Source: Hyphomicrobiales bacterium (GTDB taxonomy: Bacteria; Pseudomonadota; Alphaproteobacteria; Rhizobiales; Aestuariivirgaceae). From it: a stretch of 39,970 nt of DNA. Position numbers and translations under genes: made by a program. The notes below the pieces were generated by a model that saw only the letters and a program-made list of their open reading frames with translations, ran no database searches and was not told the DNA's origin. Numbering within the stretch: the first letter of the stretch is position 1; every line of letters starts with the position of its first letter. Positions 7,157 to 39,970 of the stretch are shown piece by piece. Where the stretch lies: positions 1-39,970 of the forward strand of contig JABDJG010000473.1 of the NCBI GenBank assembly GCA_013002595.1, read 5' to 3'.

Positions 7157-7466
7157 AGCATGTTTTGCTTATACGAAATCATCTGACCGGGATTTCGCGT
7201 CTGCTGGCTAGAGCCCAGTCCACGCCGTGGTCTGGCCGACCACAAGTGGGCTGTAACGACGTCCAGCGGGCGCGAAAACCCGATCAAATGATTCCACATC
7301 AGCAAAATTTGTTCTGGAACGTCGATCCGTTAACGGTCTGGTAATCAGTCCGCTTAATCGTTTGGCAATTGTTGCGCATTATGTTGCGCTCCATAGCAGG
7401 TTGGATCCCCCCGCTAGTCCGGGTACCATAGGTATGAAACCGCGCTGCTATCCCGGCCGACCCGGA

Positions 7467-7504
7467 ATGTCCCGTACTCAATCTTACACTTACAAAAGGG
7501 ACAT
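7467..7504 (+). promoter_or_regulatory. flagellin-1 leader hairpin pairing ATGTCCC with the SD region GGGACAT
   Basis: ATGTCCC (7467-7473) is the exact reverse complement of GGGACAT (7498-7504), which lies within AAGGGACATACGTC immediately before ATG 7510. The loop is 24 nt. The same arrangement occurs upstream of the second flagellin. Confidence 0.4.
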
Positions 7505-7509
7505 ACGTC

Positions 7510-8436
7510 ATGAGTAGTATCAATACCAATCTCGCGGCCATGACCGCGCTTCAATCACTTCAGAAAACCAGCATGAATCTGCTTGAGACCCAGACACGGA
7601 TCTCGACAGGCTTCAAGGTTGGCACGGCAGCTGACAATGCGGCCTATTTCTCGATCGCAGCAACGATGCGTTCTGACAACTCGGCCATGTCGACGGTTCA
7701 GGACGCTTTGGGCCTGGGTGCAGCAACCGTAGATGTTGCCTACACGGCACTTGAATCCACGATCGACGTTGTCGATGAAATCAAGAACAAGCTTGTTGCT
7801 TCTCGTGAGCCGGGCATCGATCGTACGAAAGTTCAGGCGGAAATCTCCGAGCTGCAGAACCAGCTCACCAGCATCGCCGAATCTGCCTCGTTCAACGGCG
7901 AGAACTTCCTCAACGTGGATTCCGGCGCGGCCGACTACAACGCGACCAAGACGATCGTGTCGTCGTTCACCCGTAGCGGCTCCAGTGTATCCATCGGCAC
8001 CATCAGCATCGACATCACGACGACGACGTTGTTTGATGCCGAGGCGACTGCCACTGGTATCCTGGACGCCGAATCGACAACCACGAACGGTTCTGTGACG
8101 TACACGGTCGCCAATCTGGATATTTCGGCCTTGACGGACGCCGCAGATGACCTGGCCGATCTGGAGGAAATCATCTCGACGGTTGATGGAGCTTTGGCTT
8201 CAGTGATCACGGCTGCGTCTGATCTTGGTGCGTCCAGTAGACGTATTGAACTGCAGCAGACCTTTGTGTCCAATCTGATGGATGCGATCGAACGCGGTAT
8301 CAGTCAGCTGGTCGATGCAGACATGAACGAAGAATCGACGCGGTTGCAGGCCTTGCAGGTGCAACAGCAGCTCGGCATTCAGGCGCTCAGTATCGCCAAC
8401 AGCTCGAGCCAGAGTATCCTGTCGCTGTTCAGGTAA
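7510..8436 (+). CDS. fla: flagellin (short rhizobial type), copy 1
   Basis: 308 aa. N-terminus MSSINTNLAAMTALQSLQ...RISTGFKV...DNAAYFSIA and C-terminus DADMNEESTRLQALQVQQQLGIQALSIANSSSQSILSLFR are flagellin D0/D1 blocks. Confidence 0.95.
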   Translation: MSSINTNLAAMTALQSLQKTSMNLLETQTRISTGFKVGTAADNAAYFSIAATMRSDNSAMSTVQDALGLGAATVDVAYTALESTIDVVDEIKNKLVASREPGIDRTKVQAEISELQNQLTSIAESASFNGENFLNVDSGAADYNATKTIVSSFTRSGSSVSIGTISIDITTTTLFDAEATATGILDAESTTTNGSVTYTVANLDISALTDAADDLADLEEIISTVDGALASVITAASDLGASSRRIELQQTFVSNLMDAIERGISQLVDADMNEESTRLQALQVQQQLGIQALSIANSSSQSILSLFR

Positions 8437-8702: not shown

Positions 8703-9629
8703 ATGGCGAGTATCAATACGAACTTTGCGGCGATGACCGCGCTTCAGTCGTTGAAGATGACTGATATGAAGCTGCTTGAGACCCAAAACCGGATTTCGAC
8801 GGGTTTCAGGGTCGAAACGGCGAAGGACAACGCGGCGTACTTTTCGATTGCTGCAACGATGCGATCCGACAATGCGGCGCTTTCGACAGTTCAGGACGCA
8901 CTGGGCCTTGGCGCTGCGGCGGTCGATGTCGCCTATACGGCGCTGGAAAGCGCCATAGATGTTGTCGACGAGATCAAGAACAAGCTGGTCGCGGCGCGTG
9001 AGCCGGGTATTGACCGAACGAAAATTCAAGCGGAAATCACCCAGCTGCAAGAACAGCTGATTGCAAACGCGGATACAGCGTCGTTCAACGGTGAAAACTT
9101 CCTGTCGGTTGATTCAGGGTCAGCCGATTACAATGTAATGAAATCAATTGTGTCCTCGTTCACACGAAGCGGCACCACGGTTTCAATCGGCACCATCAAC
9201 ATCGATATCACATCGACTGCGCTATTTGACGCCGAAGCTACTGGAACCGGAATTCTCGATGCCGAGTTTACGACGACCAATGGTGGCGTCGTCTATTCGG
9301 TTACGACCCTCGATATTTCATTGCTGACAGATTCGGCACTCGACCTGGCTGACCTTGAAGAAATGGTCCAGACCGTCGACAACGCGCTGGGCCTGGTTAT
9401 CACGGCGGCCTCCGATCTGGGTGCGGCCAGCAAGCGAATCGAACTCCAGCAGACCTTTGTGTCCAATCTGATGGATGCCGTAGACCGGGGTGTCAGCCAA
9501 CTTGTCGATGCGGACATGAACGAAGAATCGACGCGGCTGTCGGCCTTGCAGGTGCAACAACAGCTCGGCGTGCAATCCTTGAGCATCGCGAACGCGTCCA
9601 GTCAGAATATCCTGTCACTGTTCAGGTAA
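8703..9629 (+). CDS. fla: flagellin (short rhizobial type), copy 2
   Basis: 308 aa, collinear with copy 1 with no indels. The N- and C-terminal thirds are near-identical and most substitutions are central. Confidence 0.95.
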   Translation: MASINTNFAAMTALQSLKMTDMKLLETQNRISTGFRVETAKDNAAYFSIAATMRSDNAALSTVQDALGLGAAAVDVAYTALESAIDVVDEIKNKLVAAREPGIDRTKIQAEITQLQEQLIANADTASFNGENFLSVDSGSADYNVMKSIVSSFTRSGTTVSIGTINIDITSTALFDAEATGTGILDAEFTTTNGGVVYSVTTLDISLLTDSALDLADLEEMVQTVDNALGLVITAASDLGAASKRIELQQTFVSNLMDAVDRGVSQLVDADMNEESTRLSALQVQQQLGVQSLSIANASSQNILSLFR

Positions 9630-32789: not shown

Positions 32790-33173
32790 ATGCAGGAGAC
32801 GCAACCCGAAATCGAAGTCATGCAGGTGGCCGAAGATACAGCCGATGGCACCGATGCGCCGCAATCCGGTCAACCGGCGTCCTCGCCGGGCCAGAATTTG
32901 GACATCGTCATGCAGATCCCCGTTTCAGTTGATGTGAGGCTGGGGTCAACGAATATGCCCGTCTCGCGGCTGATGAAACTTGGGCGAGGGTCGGTCGTGG
33001 CGCTTGATCGCAAGGTGGGCGAACCGATTGATGTTGTGGTGAACGGGCGGGTCATCGCGCGTGGTGAAGTCGTCTTGCTGGAAGACGGCAGTTCCCGATT
33101 TGGTATTTCATTGACGGAGATTGTCAACGCCGGGCCTTCACAGAAGTCATCCAATGACGATGGAACGCAATGA
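32790..33173 (+). CDS. fliN: flagellar motor switch protein FliN
   Basis: 127 aa. The block IPVSVDVRLGSTNMPVSRLMKLGRGSVVALDRKVGEPIDVVVNGRVIARGEVVLLED is the FliN/SpoA signature. Confidence 0.9.
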   Translation: MQETQPEIEVMQVAEDTADGTDAPQSGQPASSPGQNLDIVMQIPVSVDVRLGSTNMPVSRLMKLGRGSVVALDRKVGEPIDVVVNGRVIARGEVVLLEDGSSRFGISLTEIVNAGPSQKSSNDDGTQ

Positions 33174-34198
33174 GCGCAGAAACTGCGGTCAACAGCAAGG
33201 TTTATTCAAGGCCGCTGAAGGGGTCTGAGAAAGTAGCTATTCTTCTGCTTGCTCTGGATCGCTCGTTGGCCAGCCAGTTGCTTCACCATTTCGAACCGGA
33301 TGAAATCACTACAATTCGTTCTGCGGCTGACAGCCTGGAACCGATTACTGCTTCTGATCTGGAATCGATTGTCGAGGAGTTCGCGAAGCAGTTCTCTTCT
33401 GGTTTGGGTTTTGTTGGAAAGCCCGGCGAGCTTCACAGTTTGCTGGAGACGGCGTTAGGTTCACCAGAGGAAACTGAAATACCCGAAGGAGATGATCCAG
33501 AACAGGCCGTCGAGTCAACGTCAGTGTGGGTGCAACTGGCCGAGATATCGATCGAAGAAGTTCTGCTGCCGTTCCTGCTGGAACAACACCCACAGACGGT
33601 AACGATTATTTTGTCGAATATGACGTCGGAAGTTTCAGCCAAGATCGTCGCGCAGTTGCCTGACAACCTTAGCGCCGAGATCATGCGCCGTATGTTGAGC
33701 CTCAAACAGGTGCACGAAGATGTCCTGTCGTTGATAGAAGATACGTTGCGGGAGGAGCTGCTGGCCGAGGAGGAGGAAGGCGCGGCAAATGCCGGCCATT
33801 CGCGTATCGCCAACATGATCAACCGGATGGATGGCGATCAACGCCAGCAGATCATCGACAATATTACAGCTGCGGCGCCGGAAGAGGCAGAAGCCATCAA
33901 GAAACTGCTGTTCTCGTTCGAGGACATCGAGGAATTGTCCGAGGAGGCCTGTCAGATACTTTTTGGCACGGTCCCGACCGAGGTGACTGTCATGGCGTTG
34001 CATGAAACAGAAAGTGGTTTGCGAGAAAAAATCCTCTCATCGCTGTCCGCAAGATCGCGGCGGATGGTCGAAGCTGAACTGAACGGTGCATCGGATATCG
34101 CGACGGAAGATATCAAGGAAGCCCGTCTCAAGGTTTCAGGCACAGCCCTCAGCCTGATCGAAAGCGAACAGATCCAGATCGAAGAAGAAGGCGATTGA
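33170..34198 (+). CDS. fliG: flagellar motor switch protein FliG
   Basis: 342 aa, ATGA overlap with fliN. FliG blocks GSEKVAILLLALD, LLFSFEDIEELSEEACQILF and SARSRRMVEAEL. Confidence 0.9.
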   Translation: MSAETAVNSKVYSRPLKGSEKVAILLLALDRSLASQLLHHFEPDEITTIRSAADSLEPITASDLESIVEEFAKQFSSGLGFVGKPGELHSLLETALGSPEETEIPEGDDPEQAVESTSVWVQLAEISIEEVLLPFLLEQHPQTVTIILSNMTSEVSAKIVAQLPDNLSAEIMRRMLSLKQVHEDVLSLIEDTLREELLAEEEEGAANAGHSRIANMINRMDGDQRQQIIDNITAAAPEEAEAIKKLLFSFEDIEELSEEACQILFGTVPTEVTVMALHETESGLREKILSSLSARSRRMVEAELNGASDIATEDIKEARLKVSGTALSLIESEQIQIEEEGD

Positions 34199-34234: not shown

Positions 34235-35329
34235 ATGTCTGATCAACCTGACGACGACAGTAAAACCGAAGAAGCAACCTCCAAGAAGATCCAGGACGCG
34301 GTCGACAAGGGCAATTTGCCGTTCGCCAAGGAGGCGCCGGTATTCACTTCCATGGTGGGCATGTTGATGGTCATGATATTTGTCATCGTGGACGGTGCCC
34401 GGCGGTTGTCCTCGGTGTTTGCAAGACTGATCGAGAACCCCGGCTTATGGTCGTTTTCGGCCGGCGAAGACACCGTCATCCTGCTGTATTCACTCATCGG
34501 CGAGGTCGGCAGGCTGCTGATGCCTGTTATCGGTATTCTGCTGATTGCCGGGCTGGCCGGCTCGCTGTTTCAGAATACGCCGAGCATTGTCGTTGAGCGG
34601 ATACGACCGAAATGGTCGAAGCTGTCGATCCGTGAAGGCTGGAAGCGCATTTTCGGATCGCAAGGGCGCATTGAGTTTCTCAAATCGGTGTTCAAGTTCT
34701 CCCTGGTTGCAATAGTGGCTGCTGTCCTGCTGCGCACCGCCAAGGGGGACGTGATCACGGCGATGTTTGTAGATCCATTCCAGGTTCCGGCAATGATTCT
34801 CACATTGTCGATGAAGCTGCTCGGCGCTATTTGCGCGGCCACGCTGTTGCTAGCGGCGGCCGATGTTGTGTGGTCACGGCGTCTGTGGCGCGAAAAACTG
34901 AAGATGACCAAGCAGGAAGTCAAGGACGAGCACAAGCAGACGGATGGCGATCCGATCGTCAAGGCGCGTCTGCGCTCGATAGCCTGGGATCGCCAGCGCA
35001 GGCGGATGATGTCATCTGTTCCGCAGGCGACCCTGGTGATTGCGAACCCAACCCATTATGCCATAGCGCTGAGATATGTACCTGAAGAGGCCGGCGCGCC
35101 TCTGGTCCTGGCCAAAGGCAAGGACCTGATCGCCCTGAAAATTCGTGAGGTGGCCGCCGAGCACAACGTACCGGTGATCGAAGACAAGCCTCTGGCAAGG
35201 TCGATGTTCGATGTTGTCGAGGTCGACCAGATGATTCCCGCTGAGTTTTATCAGGCCGTTGCAGAAATAATTTTCTATCTCAATGAACAGGCTGCGAGGC
35301 GATTGCCGGCAGTGACAAGATATGGGTGA
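34235..35329 (+). CDS. flhB: flagellar export switch protein FlhB
   Basis: 364 aa. N-terminus DDSKTEEATSKKIQDAVDKGNLPFAKE, the block KMTKQEVKDEHKQTDGDPIVKARLRS, and the NPTH autocleavage site (VIANPTHYAIAL). Confidence 0.95.
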   Translation: MSDQPDDDSKTEEATSKKIQDAVDKGNLPFAKEAPVFTSMVGMLMVMIFVIVDGARRLSSVFARLIENPGLWSFSAGEDTVILLYSLIGEVGRLLMPVIGILLIAGLAGSLFQNTPSIVVERIRPKWSKLSIREGWKRIFGSQGRIEFLKSVFKFSLVAIVAAVLLRTAKGDVITAMFVDPFQVPAMILTLSMKLLGAICAATLLLAAADVVWSRRLWREKLKMTKQEVKDEHKQTDGDPIVKARLRSIAWDRQRRRMMSSVPQATLVIANPTHYAIALRYVPEEAGAPLVLAKGKDLIALKIREVAAEHNVPVIEDKPLARSMFDVVEVDQMIPAEFYQAVAEIIFYLNEQAARRLPAVTRYG

Positions 35330-35841: not shown

Positions 35842-36837
35842 TCAATTGAAGAAACCTGCCAGTTTTACCTGCTGACCGCCCAATCCCTGCTTGAATTTCC
35901 TCACACCGGCCGCGCCTTCGTCGTTCACGCCGCCGAGGTCAAAGTCAGTGATGCCTCTTGCCTTGAGTTGCACGATAGCCTGCCAGAGCAGCTGATGGTG
36001 TGCACCCAGTTTGCGCCCGCCGGCACTGGTCCAGCCGATCTGATAGGTCGCCGATGTGCCGTGTAGCAGTATCAAGATGCCCGCAACGACTTGCCCGTCC
36101 TGTGTTGCATTCCAGATCACCGCCTCTTGCCGTGGCACCATGGATTGCAGCAGTGCAGTGAGCAGTTTAATGGGCGGGCCACTATAGGACTTTTCGAGAC
36201 GGTCGGTTTCGTAGGCCTTCATGAACGGAGCCGAACTTGCGCCGGTCCAGTCGTCGGTCACAATCAGGCTGCTGCGCTCGGATTTCGACAGGACATTGCG
36301 CCATTTGCCATTCAGACCGGCACGGAGCGTTTCCACGGTGCCGGTCAGATCAAGCCAGATTGTTTGATAGCCTTCAAAGTTCGACTTGCGGACGTATCCA
36401 GATGTCGTGATTGTTGCCCTATTGTCCTTGTTGTCTACAACCTCGGGCAGCAGGCGGATTTTGCGTCCGATGCGCCTTGGAAATTCTTGAGCAAGTGCCC
36501 GGAAGAACGCGGCCAGATGGTCTGGAGTGCCAAAGCCGGCAAACCACAATGGCCCCCGGTCGAGACTGATTGCATGCACCAGGTTCTTGATGACACCGAC
36601 CTCGGCCAGCTGAACCAGCCCGGCCTCGCATCCATCGATCTTGACGATACCGTGCCGGGCGCCGATCTGATTGGCCGCCCGGTTGGCCAGTGCGTACGGG
36701 TAGTGCTGCAACAGTGTGGAACGCCGAATGGATCTAAAATAGTCTTCCCATGTTGCAAGCGGTACGGGTGCCCAATCGATTTCACAGATTGCCATGTGCG
36801 TTGCCAGCAGACGCGAAAACCCGGTCAAATGATTCAA
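35842..36837 (-). CDS. FemAB-like / GNAT-fold acyl- or aminoacyl-transferase
   Basis: 331 aa, TTG start (ATG 36795 alternative). The C-terminal half VVAGILILLHGTSATYQIGWTSAGGRKLGAHHQLLWQAIVQLKARGITDFDLGGVNDEGAAGVRKFKQGLGG has the FemAB-like GNAT (BioF2-like acetyltransferase) pattern. Last gene of the YcaO operon. Confidence 0.7.
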   Translation of the reverse strand: MNHLTGFSRLLATHMAICEIDWAPVPLATWEDYFRSIRRSTLLQHYPYALANRAANQIGARHGIVKIDGCEAGLVQLAEVGVIKNLVHAISLDRGPLWFAGFGTPDHLAAFFRALAQEFPRRIGRKIRLLPEVVDNKDNRATITTSGYVRKSNFEGYQTIWLDLTGTVETLRAGLNGKWRNVLSKSERSSLIVTDDWTGASSAPFMKAYETDRLEKSYSGPPIKLLTALLQSMVPRQEAVIWNATQDGQVVAGILILLHGTSATYQIGWTSAGGRKLGAHHQLLWQAIVQLKARGITDFDLGGVNDEGAAGVRKFKQGLGGQQVKLAGFFN

Positions 36838-36879: not shown

Positions 36880-37326
36880 TTATTTTCTGGTCTGCTGCGC
36901 CAGGATACTATTTGCCTCCACCCGGGCCATATCGACGAGATATGCCAGGAACTTCAGATCAGCCGCAAGACAGATGTCTTTGAGCTCTTCCGCCATATTG
37001 TGCACGTACAGCACAACATCCGATTTGCTTGCTTTGGACTCCAACCATACTTTTGAAATTTCTTGTTTGCCGGCAGATTCCATTTGTTCGGTTGTCGCGC
37101 CACTTGTGGTCGGCGCATCGTGCTGATCCTGTCCGGATGGTTCTCGCAACTCGGTTGTCAGCAACTCATAGAGTTCCGTGATGTTGGGGTCATCCAGCGA
37201 GGCAATGTCTTGTTGTAACGAGGTTGCCTTGTCGAGAACGTGTGTCCTAACGCATTTGCCCAGATGCGGGTTCGCAATGTGGCCCGCATCCTCAGTTTGC
37301 AAGAAAGTTGGTTGTCTCTTATTCAT
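36880..37326 (-). CDS. hypothetical 148-aa protein (orphan) inside the YcaO-TfuA operon
   Basis: Track ORF 36880-37494 trimmed to ATG 37326 (M57, GGGACGG upstream), because the long form would overlap tfuA by 97 nt. Acidic/Thr-rich N-terminal half and a helical C-terminal half (VVLYVHNMAEELKDICLAADLKFLAYLVDMARVEANSIL). No family recognised. Confidence 0.45.
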   Translation of the reverse strand: MNKRQPTFLQTEDAGHIANPHLGKCVRTHVLDKATSLQQDIASLDDPNITELYELLTTELREPSGQDQHDAPTTSGATTEQMESAGKQEISKVWLESKASKSDVVLYVHNMAEELKDICLAADLKFLAYLVDMARVEANSILAQQTRK

Positions 37327-37397: not shown

Positions 37398-38144
37398 CTA
37401 GTGCGATTGGTTCGGAGCGGCGTTTTCGATTTCTGAGATCATGGCACGCCACTGGGATGATTGACTGAAACTCCAATCGTCTGGAGGAACACACTTCGTT
37501 TCAGGTAACTTGATCCACTCTACTAACTGCATTGCGTCTTGCTGCTTTATGTTGACCTTATGTTGATTGGCCCACGCAATCAGGCGTTGGACCCTTCGCA
37601 GCTCGATGATGGGCAAACTGCCCAGGACTGATGAGAAATTTAACTCCGCGTAGTGTGTCCGGCGTGCCGCAGTCGTGGCCGACTGCCATTCCAGCGTCGA
37701 GATCATCTTGTCTGCACGCATGGCATTGAGAGTGGCCAGGATGTTCACGCGAGGCTCAGACAGAGGCTGATAGCCAAATTCGTGTGTTGCATGCACCAGG
37801 GCCACATCGGAATCGTCGACCAGTTCTCCAGCCTGATACATCTGGAATACCTGCCCGATGCCGATCATCCCGAACGGGGCACATTCCGCGGCGCGAAGAG
37901 CGCCCATGCTGGCGGCGCCGGCGACCGACACGCCTTCGGACAACGCAAATAGAATTTCCTTGTGCCAAACCGACCGGGTCTGTTCAAAGCAGCCATCGAT
38001 AATTCCGATGGTGGATGCACCATTCAGCACCGCCTTGGCAACATCGCCCCAAACAACGGGCCCGGCGATAATCAGTTCAGGATCCTCTTGTTGAACTTGA
38101 TCGATCATTCCGGCCAGACTGGGGCCTGCGAACAAAATCCTCAC
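37398..38144 (-). CDS. tfuA: TfuA-like protein (YcaO partner)
   Basis: 248 aa; the GTG start overlaps the ycaO TGA stop (GTGA). Family pattern MRILFAGPSL...GPVVWGDV...IGIIDGCFEQTRSVWHKEILFALSEGVSVAGAASMGALRAAECAPFGMIGIGQVFQMY...DDSDVALVH. Confidence 0.85.
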   Translation of the reverse strand: MRILFAGPSLAGMIDQVQQEDPELIIAGPVVWGDVAKAVLNGASTIGIIDGCFEQTRSVWHKEILFALSEGVSVAGAASMGALRAAECAPFGMIGIGQVFQMYQAGELVDDSDVALVHATHEFGYQPLSEPRVNILATLNAMRADKMISTLEWQSATTAARRTHYAELNFSSVLGSLPIIELRRVQRLIAWANQHKVNIKQQDAMQLVEWIKLPETKCVPPDDWSFSQSSQWRAMISEIENAAPNQSH

Positions 38145-39385
38145 GCTGCGACCCCTTGCATGTGGCGAAGGCCGCGCTGGGTTATCTGAACGCGGTTGCC
38201 CTGAAGAGGAACCTGAAGTTCATCGGCGATCACACGAACGACGTGAATGCCAAATTCCTGCGCATCCAATTCGACGACCAGTATCTGTTCGATGCCAACC
38301 GAATTCAGCCGATCCGTTAAGTCCTCGACCTTTTGTTTCATGCTAGCCGGTTCGGCCGGGCTCCGGGAACTGGCTTGCGCTCGGCCAGGACGTGCATAGG
38401 AATTCGGCCGACTGTCCGGTAGGTCGTGGAGTTTTTCAGCCTCATAGTGCTCGGCGCGAATATCGTCTCGTGCACCAGCGACCAGGGCCAATCGGGCTTG
38501 GGCGGCCTCCGTGATGGCCTTGACCATGGCGCGCCCTGCATCGGGATGACACCCGCATCCGCCACACTTGCTGCCGGTCTGGCCCGCAGCTTCATGGCGG
38601 TAATGTTTGGGTTCCAGCAAGGCCAGAAATGCGGGTAATTCAGTGTCTGAGTGCATATGAAACATACGCAGACTCAAGCCAGCAGCCTCGATCAGTTGTA
38701 ACAGCGCGGGCAGGTGTACGTCTTCTTGCCCCGTTGGCTGAAATTCAGAGTTACGCAGATTCTGCTTGGGCAGAAACTGCATATTGGCCAACGCATCTCT
38801 TTCAATGAGCTCGCATAAGGCATGAAACACTGCTTCATCATGGGTGTTGCCGGATGCAAGGCCGTCAGATGCAACATAAAATGCATCGTGATAGCCGGTC
38901 GGGGACTCGCGGTGATCGAGGCCGACCAGGGACCAGGGCACAAATGTAAGGTCATCTGTTCCAAGGTTCCTGGCTTGCTTCCAGGCCGTGGTTTCAAACG
39001 CTGCAAATCGATGAGGGTGGCAACGGGCAATTGACGCCAGATCGATGATGGGTTGCCCTGAACGGTTCAAGGAATCAAACGATGTCCAAACGACTGTGTC
39101 TGGCAGGCGCTCGGCGATCGCCGTCTCTGCGGCTTCCATCGCAGCCGAGATCATCGCTGAATCAATATCCGGTCCCTTGCCCAGACTAACAGAAAGGCTG
39201 TGTGAGTTTGGACGCACAGCCAACGCCACCGGAATGCCTAGGTGATCCAGGCCGGTTAGTTCTCCAAGCCGCGATATGCCAAGGCTGTGGAAATGCGGCC
39301 GCAAGCGAGCCAATGTCTGGCGAGCGCCACATGATCTGTCATTGTGCAGGCTACTTGGACTTCGAACGGCATACTGTTGTGACAT
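38141..39385 (-). CDS. ycaO: YcaO-domain protein (ATP-dependent peptide backbone-modifying enzyme)
   Basis: Track ORF 38141-39433 (TTG start) trimmed to ATG 39385 (GGAG 10 nt upstream); 414 aa. YcaO blocks LGISRLGELTGLDHLGIPVALAVRPNSHSLSVSLGKGPDIDSAMISAAMEAAETAIAE, ASDGLASGNTHDEAVFHALCELIERDA and GGCGCHPDAGRAMVKAITEAAQARLALVAGARDDI. Confidence 0.9.
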   Translation of the reverse strand: MSQQYAVRSPSSLHNDRSCGARQTLARLRPHFHSLGISRLGELTGLDHLGIPVALAVRPNSHSLSVSLGKGPDIDSAMISAAMEAAETAIAERLPDTVVWTSFDSLNRSGQPIIDLASIARCHPHRFAAFETTAWKQARNLGTDDLTFVPWSLVGLDHRESPTGYHDAFYVASDGLASGNTHDEAVFHALCELIERDALANMQFLPKQNLRNSEFQPTGQEDVHLPALLQLIEAAGLSLRMFHMHSDTELPAFLALLEPKHYRHEAAGQTGSKCGGCGCHPDAGRAMVKAITEAAQARLALVAGARDDIRAEHYEAEKLHDLPDSRPNSYARPGRAQASSRSPAEPASMKQKVEDLTDRLNSVGIEQILVVELDAQEFGIHVVRVIADELQVPLQGNRVQITQRGLRHMQGVAA

Positions 39386-39462: not shown

Positions 39463-39777
39463 TTAGGACGGCAGGTTGGCGTCGCGGCAACCAAGCTCAG
39501 TTGGCTCGGAGCGCATGGTGAACATGACACCGTCGAGCTTGTCGCTCTGGTGTTCGGTGGGCTCGGAGCGCATGGTGAACATGACGCCGTCGAGCTTGTC
39601 GCTTTTGTGCTCGGTGGGCTCGGAACGCATGGTGAACATGACGCCGTCGAGTTTGTCGGTTGCGGTTGCACTCAGTCCATTGCCGGCAACGGCTTTGGTT
39701 GAGACCGGAAAGGCTTCACCGTTCGGTGAACCGAAGACCATTGTTCCCGCGGACTTGTCATACGAAAAACTGCTCAT
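39463..39777 (-). CDS. 104-aa tandem-repeat small protein; candidate multi-core RiPP precursor
   Basis: ATG 39777 is preceded by GGAGAGAG (5-nt spacer). The ORF ends 77 nt upstream of ycaO on the same strand. It carries three tandem copies of DKLDGVMFTMRSEPTE separated by HKS/HQS. All variation between the core copies falls on every third base. The precursor role is inferred from context. Confidence 0.6.
   Translation of the reverse strand: MSSFSYDKSAGTMVFGSPNGEAFPVSTKAVAGNGLSATATDKLDGVMFTMRSEPTEHKSDKLDGVMFTMRSEPTEHQSDKLDGVMFTMRSEPTELGCRDANLPS
39496..39657 (-). repeat. 57-nt tandem repeat, 2.8 copies, in-frame within the small ORF
   Basis: Units at 39601-39657 and 39544-39600, plus a 48-nt third unit at 39496-39543. 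Six variable sites occur across the 48-nt cores, all in the same codon register. Confidence 0.9.
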
Positions 39778-39970
39778 AATTCTCTCTCCATGTTTTTGAT
39801 TCAGAGATCAAATCATTAACGGGCAGGCGTGACTCCTGTGTGAGAGTCGACGATCAGCGTGTCACAACGCCGATCGACCGCAGTCACTATTTGAGACCTG
39901 CACGCCATAGTCCTTCGAGCAAGTGCTTGGTATCTTTGATGTTTTTGTCCGGGATCACCGTGAACAAACG

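Follow-up and report, generated by a model that had tools for sequence, protein, structure and literature searches.

A family of putative precursor peptides with one to three core copies adjoins YcaO and TfuA genes in uncultured alphaproteobacteria

Near one end of a 39,970-nucleotide (nt) stretch of DNA from a Hyphomicrobiales bacterium (assembly GCA_013002595.1, contig JABDJG010000473.1, positions 1 to 39,970, forward strand; hereafter the window), the minus strand carries a small gene whose 104-amino-acid (aa) product consists of a leader, three tandem copies of one core sequence and a short tail. The gene is followed by ycaO and tfuA and is preceded by the truncated end of a gene for a protein that resembles Streptomyces antibiotic regulatory proteins (SARPs). 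This order of SARP-like gene, peptide, YcaO, and TfuA is observed in every orthologous locus (designated L001 and so on) that is long enough to show it. Alignment of the loci defines a conserved module composed of a SARP-like activator, a direct-repeat promoter, the peptide, a hairpin, YcaO, and a translationally coupled TfuA. The coordinates of these features are collected in the table.

Table. Features at and near the repeat-containing peptide gene, in window coordinates (ORF, open reading frame)
Feature	Coordinates	Strand	Description and basis
SARP-like activator gene, 3′ end	39887..39970	minus	Last 27 codons (RLFTVIPDKNIKDTKHLLEGLWRAGLK) and stop; cut by window end
Candidate activator site	39829..39843	minus	Direct repeat TCACA-N6-TCAC, 11-nt period; invariant in 12-locus alignment
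−10-like element	39812..39818	minus	TAATGAT (consensus TAnGnT), ∼10 nt after second repeat; last T (T78) invariant, read from alignment
Shine-Dalgarno sequence	39786..39789	minus	GGAG, 8 nt before peptide ATG; GGAG/GGAGA conserved in 12/12 loci
Putative precursor peptide gene	39463..39777	minus	ATG start, 104 aa: leader, three cores, 10-aa tail; ORF extraction
Leader	39658..39777	minus	Codons 1–40 (MSSFSYDKSAGTMVFGSPNGEAFPVSTKAVAGNGLSATAT); conserved residues in family alignment
Unit 1	39601..39657	minus	DKLDGVMFTMRSEPTE + HKS; Tandem Repeats Finder and re-extraction
Unit 2	39544..39600	minus	DKLDGVMFTMRSEPTE + HQS; Tandem Repeats Finder and re-extraction
Unit 3	39496..39543	minus	DKLDGVMFTMRSEPTE, 16-codon core, then tail LGCRDANLPS and stop (39463–39465); Tandem Repeats Finder and re-extraction
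Stem-loop	39419..39456	minus	14 base pairs, 7 nt past peptide stop, then UUUGUU; candidate attenuator or transcript stabilizer; folding
YcaO	38141..39385	minus	414 aa from conserved Met; Pfam YcaO; longest ORF begins at TTG 39433
TfuA	37398..38144	minus	248 aa; Pfam TfuA; NCBIfam ThioGly_TfuA_rel; 4-nt overlap with YcaO stop
148-aa protein	36880..37326	minus	Found only in clusters of this type; Pfam and PDB searches gave no match
FemAB/GNAT-like protein	35842..36795	minus	317 aa; candidate cluster member; Pfam Acetyltransf_6 and FemAB

The repeats form a single array at positions 39495–39658, for which Tandem Repeats Finder gives a period of 57, 2.9 copies, 91% matches, no indels, and a score of 272. 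A preliminary description, made from the letters of the window alone, had given the unit coordinates, the ORF, and six base changes among the cores; each was re-extracted and agrees. All six variable sites in the three 48-nt cores fall at codon position 3 and are silent (K AAA/AAG, G GGC/GGT, R CGT/CGC, P CCC/CCA, T ACC/ACT, and E GAG/GAA), and the amino acid differences among units are confined to the residues that come after the core (HKS, HQS, or LGC). The probability that a random substitution in the core is silent is 0.21–0.25, depending on the transition bias, and the chance of observing six silent changes out of six is ∼8e-5 to 2.4e-4. The same bias is evident elsewhere in the family: across seven genes, 21 sites of the 8-codon core vary within a gene, and 19 of them are at position 3. 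Selection on the encoded peptide, as originally proposed, is thus seen as silent-only variation in the window gene and again in independent orthologues. This pattern of substitutions demonstrates purifying selection on the three encoded core copies.

To define the family, the minus-frame product was used as the query in a word-indexed search of 5.8 billion protein clusters. This search recovered 11 relatives of 74–104 aa, all from metagenomes or metagenome-assembled genomes (MAGs), and each has two or three copies of an invariant M-F-[T/A]-M-R-S-E-P. When the 12 family members are aligned, leader residues Y6, G20, F23, and P24 are invariant and V14 is nearly so. An exhaustive profile search through 1.84 billion representative proteins brought in further members with three copies (P0013, with MFTVRSEP and a 17-aa period), two copies (P0014, P0015, and P0018), and one copy (P0016), and beyond the family it returned only chance matches to long repeat proteins. 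The GTDB representative genomes were also scanned with a YcaO alignment. Eight loci were found in MAGs of the Rhizobiaceae group and of Anderseniella and in one Nitrosomonas MAG. The nearest YcaO genes are those in the Rhizobiaceae-group and Anderseniella MAGs, and the reference to Rhizobiales in the preliminary description is plausible. At six of these eight loci, a small ORF just upstream of ycaO encodes one core behind a leader with the motif G-x-x-[FY]-P-I-[SA] (G-x-x-[FY]-P-[IVL] in its broader form); these cores read DVMFTMRSVPTEE, DIMFTMRSEPIG, IVFTMRSEPG, IIFTMRSEPG, and IVCTLRSEPG.

The number of cores next to YcaO, a count that the preliminary description had proposed as a check, is therefore one, two, or three, with periods of 17, 19, 20, 21, 22, or 23 aa that are always in frame. 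The conserved heart of the core can be written x-[F/C]-[T/A]-[M/V/L]-R-S-[E/V]-P, and in the window it corresponds to the heptapeptide FTMRSEP. In several members the first core reads MFAMRSEP, in which Thr is replaced by Ala. The spacers between cores and the tail are poorly conserved and variable in length. The family is rare, with ∼25 genes known from 15 billion predicted proteins and every one of them from an uncultured bacterium, and its source appears to be uncultured alphaproteobacteria of a marine type. No model covering the precursor peptide is present in Pfam or NCBIfam. Thus, the arrangement first inferred from the window, in which a 40-aa leader and a repeated core lie beside YcaO and TfuA, holds across the family with respect to leader motif, core, copy number, and synteny.

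The repeats differ in age between lineages. In the close clade, units differ from one another at 3–5 positions within the window gene and at 5–7 positions within the L001 gene, whereas 6–9 differences separate units of the two genes. Each gene also has residues shared by all of its own units (GV in the window gene, GI in the L001 gene). Because the units are closer within a gene than between genes, these data indicate gene conversion or recent expansion in this clade. Units 1 and 2 of L002 and L004 differ at 22–27 of 48 nt within each gene, but only 11 differences separate unit 1 of L002 from unit 1 of L004, and only 6 separate the corresponding second units. The units of these two genes are old, diverged, and positionally orthologous, and therefore both copies have been kept by selection.

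The two proteins encoded after the peptide belong to families that are well matched by existing models. The YcaO domain (PF02624) is recognized with an E-value of 1.4e-56 over profile positions 2–323 of 325, and the protein scores 150 bits against the YcaO-type kinase domain model TIGR00702 (cut-off 75.65). Its closest NCBIfam model is the YcaO of McrA-glycine thioamidation, TIGR03266 (166.5, below the cut-off of 365), and its closest PDB match is MJ1094 of M. jannaschii (1.6e-18). LynD, TruD, and MusD, which form azolines, are matched far less well; the match to LynD (6.5e-07) covers only the C-terminal half of that protein. The window YcaO has a single domain, with no fusion to an E1-like domain or a RiPP recognition element (RRE; RiPP, a peptide that is made on the ribosome and modified after translation). 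TfuA is recognized by PF07812 (2e-41) and by NF033432 (ThioGly_TfuA_rel; 1.9e-51), although its score of 174.5 against the latter is below the cut-off of 235.2. TfuA adjoins ycaO in all orthologous loci, and the 4-nt overlap of the two genes is preserved in L001, L002, and L003. The spacing of 77 nt between the peptide and ycaO that was noted originally is retained when YcaO is taken to start at ATG 39385, whose Met is conserved in six of six aligned orthologues, rather than at TTG 39433. With a YcaO domain, an adjacent TfuA, and a short co-oriented precursor that has a conserved leader and core, the locus has the cluster-level characteristics of the YcaO-TfuA (“TfuA-related”) class of RiPPs.

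Upstream of the peptide gene, the residues encoded at the edge of the window (RLFTVIPDKNIKDTKHLLEGLWRAGLK followed by a stop) match the C-terminus (...RLIPDKNIHDTKHLLEGLWRAGLK, then a stop) of a 661-aa protein encoded at the same position in L001. Proteins of this kind, 620–690 aa in length, precede the peptide gene in L001–L004, L013–L016, L018, L019, and L028. In the orthologues, a BTAD domain scores 27.6 and 37.6 against a cut-off of 22.1 and TPR repeats are also present, whereas the match to the OmpR-type Trans_reg_C domain is weak (22.4 against a cut-off of 26.2). The upstream protein is thus predicted to have a SARP-like architecture (BTAD plus TPR). Short direct repeats with an 11-nt periodicity that abut a −10 element are a hallmark of SARP operators. 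The upstream regions of 12 loci are 56% identical overall, and their only long invariant blocks are TCACA and TCAC, the two halves of the candidate activator site. The pattern TCACANNNNNNTCAC has a single occurrence in the 40-kb window, on the minus strand, and TCACA-N6-TCAC is found once, on the strand of the gene and upstream of it, in 17 loci; L028 has the variant TCACG-N6-TCAC. A generic sigma-70 scan detected no full promoter, which is the outcome anticipated if the promoter depends on an activator and lacks a −35 element. The sequence GTGACA, which is the inverted complement of the TCAC repeats, is located 22 nt upstream of the first TCACA (39860–39865, minus strand). It is nearly invariant in the 12 loci (G25, T26, G27) and may be an additional contact for the regulator.

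The stem-loop that follows the peptide gene has counterparts at the equivalent place in L001, L010, L003, L015, L016, and L019, with different stem sequences. In an alignment of five sequences, 4 of 11 pairs show double compensatory changes. A terminator scan reported no terminator on the minus strand, but the 10-nt loop of this hairpin exceeds the limit of that scan.

One complication in interpreting the array is that an ORF on the plus strand (39476–39799; 107 aa, TTG start) has the same wobble register, and its three units are identical as well. The six base changes are silent in this frame too. The caution expressed in the preliminary description, that the window by itself cannot decide which strand is coding, is therefore justified, and its preference for the minus strand is settled by the orthologues. 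In each of the five orthologous genes examined at the DNA level, a conserved ATG begins an uninterrupted sense frame. The antisense frame that shares its wobble positions is interrupted by three internal stops in L002, three in L004, and one in L003; in L001 and L010, which are close relatives, it remains mostly open. More than 20 loci retain the ATG, GGAG, promoter motif, leader, and position before ycaO of the minus frame. No conserved start, ribosome-binding site, or family match was found for the plus-strand ORF. The ratio of nonsynonymous to synonymous substitution rates (dN/dS; Nei-Gojobori), which had been suggested as a comparison between the two frames, is lower for the sense frame in 11 of the 12 pairs for which both can be computed; the exception is the pair formed by the window and L010, which favors the antisense frame. 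The wobble positions common to the two frames make this comparison weak by itself, and the strand call rests on the stop codons. The orthologues thus identify the minus strand as the coding strand.

An alternative to consider here is that the plus-strand ORF is the real gene, or that the repeat is noncoding or a very recent neutral duplication. To these possibilities we assign almost no credence. Silent-only variation has P ∼1e-4 under neutrality, and L002 and L004 have kept old, diverged duplicate cores. Together with the stop codons and the conserved minus-frame signals, these sequence patterns refute both the plus-strand and the noncoding readings. A more general lesson is that variation among repeats within one gene cannot exclude an antisense ORF with a shared wobble register, whereas distant orthologues can.

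The gene and its strand, the selection on each copy, the variable copy number, the synteny, the promoter motif, and the hairpin are all documented by the comparisons described above. The explanation that probably accounts for them best is that the minus-strand ORF encodes a RiPP precursor, in which a 40-aa leader is recognized by the enzymes and three identical cores are substrates for thioamidation by YcaO-TfuA before release as peptides. According to this model, the SARP-like activator would bind TCACA-N6-TCAC over the −35 region and switch on the operon. The hairpin after the peptide stop would let the peptide message outnumber the enzyme message, and the peptide would be translated from ATG 39777. 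Guided by the leader, YcaO with ATP would activate one or more backbone amides in each FTMRSEP core, and TfuA would supply sulfide, such that an exchange of oxygen for sulfur yields a thioamide. We infer this chemistry from the enzyme families. Release of separate peptides is proposed by analogy with the thiovarsolins: housekeeping peptidases would trim the unmodified leader and linkers to give three identical, protease-resistant thioamide peptides per precursor. Housekeeping peptidases are the most likely agents since the module lacks a protease or exporter.

Several observations weigh against a released thioamide peptide. Both the YcaO and the TfuA scores are under the cut-offs of the McrA equivalog models, and therefore function can be transferred only at the level of the family. 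No protease, exporter, or immunity gene is part of the conserved module, and a single leader would have to serve three cores that are located at different distances from it. Every relative is derived from a metagenome or a MAG, and none of the 25 matches to MF[TA]MRSEP in the GTDB representative genomes was confirmed. Support for the hairpin is modest, with z = −1.46 for the whole 88-nt spacer and only five sequences aligned. Finally, a thioamide has been shown for no proteobacterial YcaO-TfuA peptide cluster in the literature searched.

A different possibility is that the peptide is modified by YcaO-TfuA but is never cut, and that it functions inside the cell as a thioamide-bearing small protein of ∼100 aa whose repeats simply raise the number of modified sites, for example in soft-metal binding or regulation. 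The conserved module has no protease or transporter, and the known non-RiPP substrates of thioamidating YcaO enzymes, McrA (PMC5589413) and uL16 (PMC13063428), are whole proteins. Other features that could be viewed in this light are the MxxM pair (MFTM) in the window core, the MerR-family regulator encoded after TfuA in L002 and in Anderseniella loci, and the HupE/UreJ and DUF1775 (YcnI-like) genes that lie a few kilobases away in three Anderseniella loci. However, the MxxM pair is not kept in cores such as IVFTMRSEP and IVCTLRSEP, and the metal-related neighbors vary between loci. A role in metal binding was set aside for this reason, as these features are unconserved across the family, and the idea is retained only as a part of the intact-protein explanation. 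Moreover, the unconserved spacers and tail and the periods of 17–23 aa are as expected of discarded linkers, and the leader-core layout, SARP-type activator, and hairpin are typical of natural-product operons. The thiovarsolins are released although their cluster lacks a protease (PMC6511847). On balance, we regard an uncut protein as unlikely.

The type of modification could also differ from that proposed. YcaO might catalyze cyclodehydration of Ser or Thr to an oxazoline, or formation of an amidine, and the core does contain an invariant Ser and a usually conserved Thr. YcaO enzymes are known that make azolines, amidines, and thioamides. Yet TfuA is adjacent and translationally coupled in every locus, the genes nearby encode neither an E1-like or Ocin-ThiF partner nor an azoline dehydrogenase, and the top matches among curated models and solved structures are thioamidating YcaO proteins. 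In addition, several members have Ala instead of Thr in their first core. We consider these other chemistries highly improbable. Thioamidation of a leader-core precursor therefore remains the reading that we favor.

Genes farther downstream were examined as possible members of the cluster. The 148-aa protein belongs to a family of only 8 proteins in the 5.8 billion clusters, and its gene follows TfuA wherever the contig reaches (L001, L003, and L023–L025). A divergent ORF of 190 aa occupies its position in L028, and a MerR-family gene replaces it in L002 and the Anderseniella loci. Because a MerR-family regulator takes its place in these other clades, there is a hint that the 148-aa protein also has a regulatory role. 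The AlphaFold2 (AF2) model of the protein is helical, with a pLDDT (predicted local distance difference test) of 55, and its C-terminal helix, ELK.IC...DLKFLAYL.DM.R.EA, is invariant. The FemAB/GNAT-like gene is adjacent and co-oriented in the window, L001, L023–26, and L028, and it was first taken for a cluster member. Its family, however, has more than 400 members at ≥44% identity (that is, at least 44%) across Alphaproteobacteria in varied contexts, and homologues with 64–67% identity occur without YcaO. The only PDB matches of the protein are weak and are described as “aminoacyl-tRNA-dependent peptide synthase” (9wqy and 9wqw; E-values of 3e-4 and 1e-3). Its relatives are apparently named no further than “GNAT family N-acetyltransferase.”

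A more far-reaching idea is that the cluster makes the first thioamide RiPP known from Proteobacteria, a short FTMRSEP-derived thiopeptide of which each precursor would yield three. In the clade of the window, the neighboring FemAB-like protein would tailor it further as a transferase that depends on aminoacyl-tRNA, and the 148-aa protein found only in these clusters would be a partner of a new kind. This more elaborate proposal is quite doubtful. If true, it would define a new RiPP subclass, beyond a new precursor.

Some other aspects of the genomic surroundings can be noted. Positions 1–35330 of the window are occupied mostly by a flagellar gene cluster (for example, 33170–34198 and 34235–35329, both plus strand), and the counterparts in syntenic loci include FliG, FlhB (Bac_export_2), FliM/N, MotA, rod proteins, and the ATPase of the type III secretion system (T3SS). 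The YcaO module abuts the flagellar cluster in the window, L023, L024, L026, and L028, whereas the Anderseniella loci lack this junction; the adjacency therefore looks lineage-specific rather than functional. In the window, the cluster has a guanine-cytosine (GC) content of 0.546, a little lower than the 0.574 of the flagellar region. In L017, L018, and L019, genes for a HupE/UreJ_2 metal transporter (7e-53) and a DUF1775/YcnI-like protein (5e-42) are located 1–3 kb downstream of TfuA-MerR (in L019, at 7289–8023 on the minus strand and 8762–9271 on the plus strand); the pair is absent from L015 and L016. A truncated integrase/transposase gene (rve) is present in L028 (2691–3224, plus strand), ∼600 nt upstream of the SARP-like gene, which suggests that the module may have come by horizontal transfer.

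A resemblance of the repeat unit to peptide deformylase was considered and rejected. The units read DKLDGVMFTMR..., and the stretch EHKSDKLDGVMFTMR (window 39544–39657, minus strand; peptide residues 56–76) is similar to the C-terminal HExxH-LDGVLFxDR region of that enzyme. This likeness is below threshold (NCBIfam E 0.006, Pfam E 0.038), and a query of two units yielded no match in the PDB. The similarity is probably due to chance because the D-x-L-D-G part is unconserved in distant family members.

With regard to novelty, a global survey published in 2021 reported that the characterized TfuA-YcaO thioamide peptides all come from Actinobacteria, whereas most of the predicted clusters are proteobacterial (PMC8120280). 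No alphaproteobacterial TfuA-YcaO thioamide product was found in the literature up to 2026, and no paper containing MFTMRSEP, FTMRSEP, or TMRSEP was found in the literature searched. The strings MFTMRSEP, FTMRSEP, TMRSEP, FTMRS, and Anderseniella are all absent from the supplements of the 2021 survey (PMC8120280). Judged by these searches, the peptides form a family of precursors with repeats that had not been described before, within a YcaO-TfuA system of known kind. To a specialist the finding will be conceptually unsurprising; it is also a tractable natural-product lead, with the possibility of a first proteobacterial thioamide peptide. The four genes and the distinctive seven-residue core make a compact test case, and the natural variants with one, two, and three copies would make it possible to test directly how several cores are served by one leader. 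The candidate activator, for which an operator can be defined, could provide a means to switch on a silent cluster.

Among systems described previously, the closest in function is the thiovarsolin cluster varA-varY-varT of Streptomyces varsoviensis (Santos-Aberturas et al. 2019; PMC6511847), which likewise has YcaO and TfuA beside a precursor with a leader and repeating core. The genes varA, varY, and varT suffice as a minimal unit for thiovarsolin formation, no dedicated protease is encoded, and endogenous peptidases have been invoked (PMC6511847). Relatives of VarA range from non-repeating to five repeats (PMC6511847), compared with one to three here, so the analogy with thiovarsolins drawn in the preliminary description is apt. 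This likeness in copy number is a functional resemblance only. Judged by their core motifs and by the profile search, which returned only peptides of the FTMRSEP type and chance repeat proteins, the two precursors are unrelated in sequence. The published VarA core is APR/GPR rather than FTMRSEP (PMC6511847), and the genes adjoining the module do not include VarO (heme-oxygenase-like), an ATP-grasp ligase, an amidinotransferase, or a major facilitator superfamily (MFS) transporter. Thiovarsolin production is actinobacterial, whereas the present family is found in uncultured Hyphomicrobiales-like alphaproteobacteria and is accompanied by a SARP-like activator with a direct-repeat operator and by the clade-specific 148-aa protein. 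By these sequence characteristics, the new family is not a member of the thiovarsolin family.

Similar distinctions can be made for other systems: the family belongs neither to the thioamitides nor to the cyanobactins, and its enzymes are not an McrA-type pair, given scores under the equivalog cut-offs and a dedicated peptide gene. In thioamitides such as thioviridamide, the thioholgamides, and thiostreptamide S4, YcaO-TfuA installs backbone thioamides on a ribosomal precursor. Those pathways have a single core, an AviCys macrocycle, a decarboxylase, a kinase/lyase, and methyltransferases, none of which is present here. Cyanobactin precursors of the PatE type contain several core cassettes, and a YcaO-domain enzyme acts on each. 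The presence of several cassettes in one precursor is shared with our family, a comparison that was also drawn for the thiovarsolins (PMC6511847). Unlike the window locus, cyanobactin systems have an azoline-making YcaO fused to an E1-like/RRE domain, PatA/PatG proteases, and recognition sequences that flank each cassette. Regulation by SARPs is resembled in the combination of a possible winged helix (a weak match) with BTAD and TPR, and in 11-nt direct repeats near a −10 element; the candidate regulator here is alphaproteobacterial, and the repeats are its putative operator. With respect to the predicted reaction, the nearest likeness is to the McrA-glycine thioamidation pair, to which the closest curated models (TIGR03266 and NF033432) and the closest structure (MJ1094) belong. 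The methanogen YcaO/TfuA pair thioamidates McrA (PMC5589413), and uL16 is the substrate of E. coli YcaO (PMC13063428). In both of these cases one site is modified on a large folded protein, whereas the system described here has a small peptide gene dedicated to the purpose.

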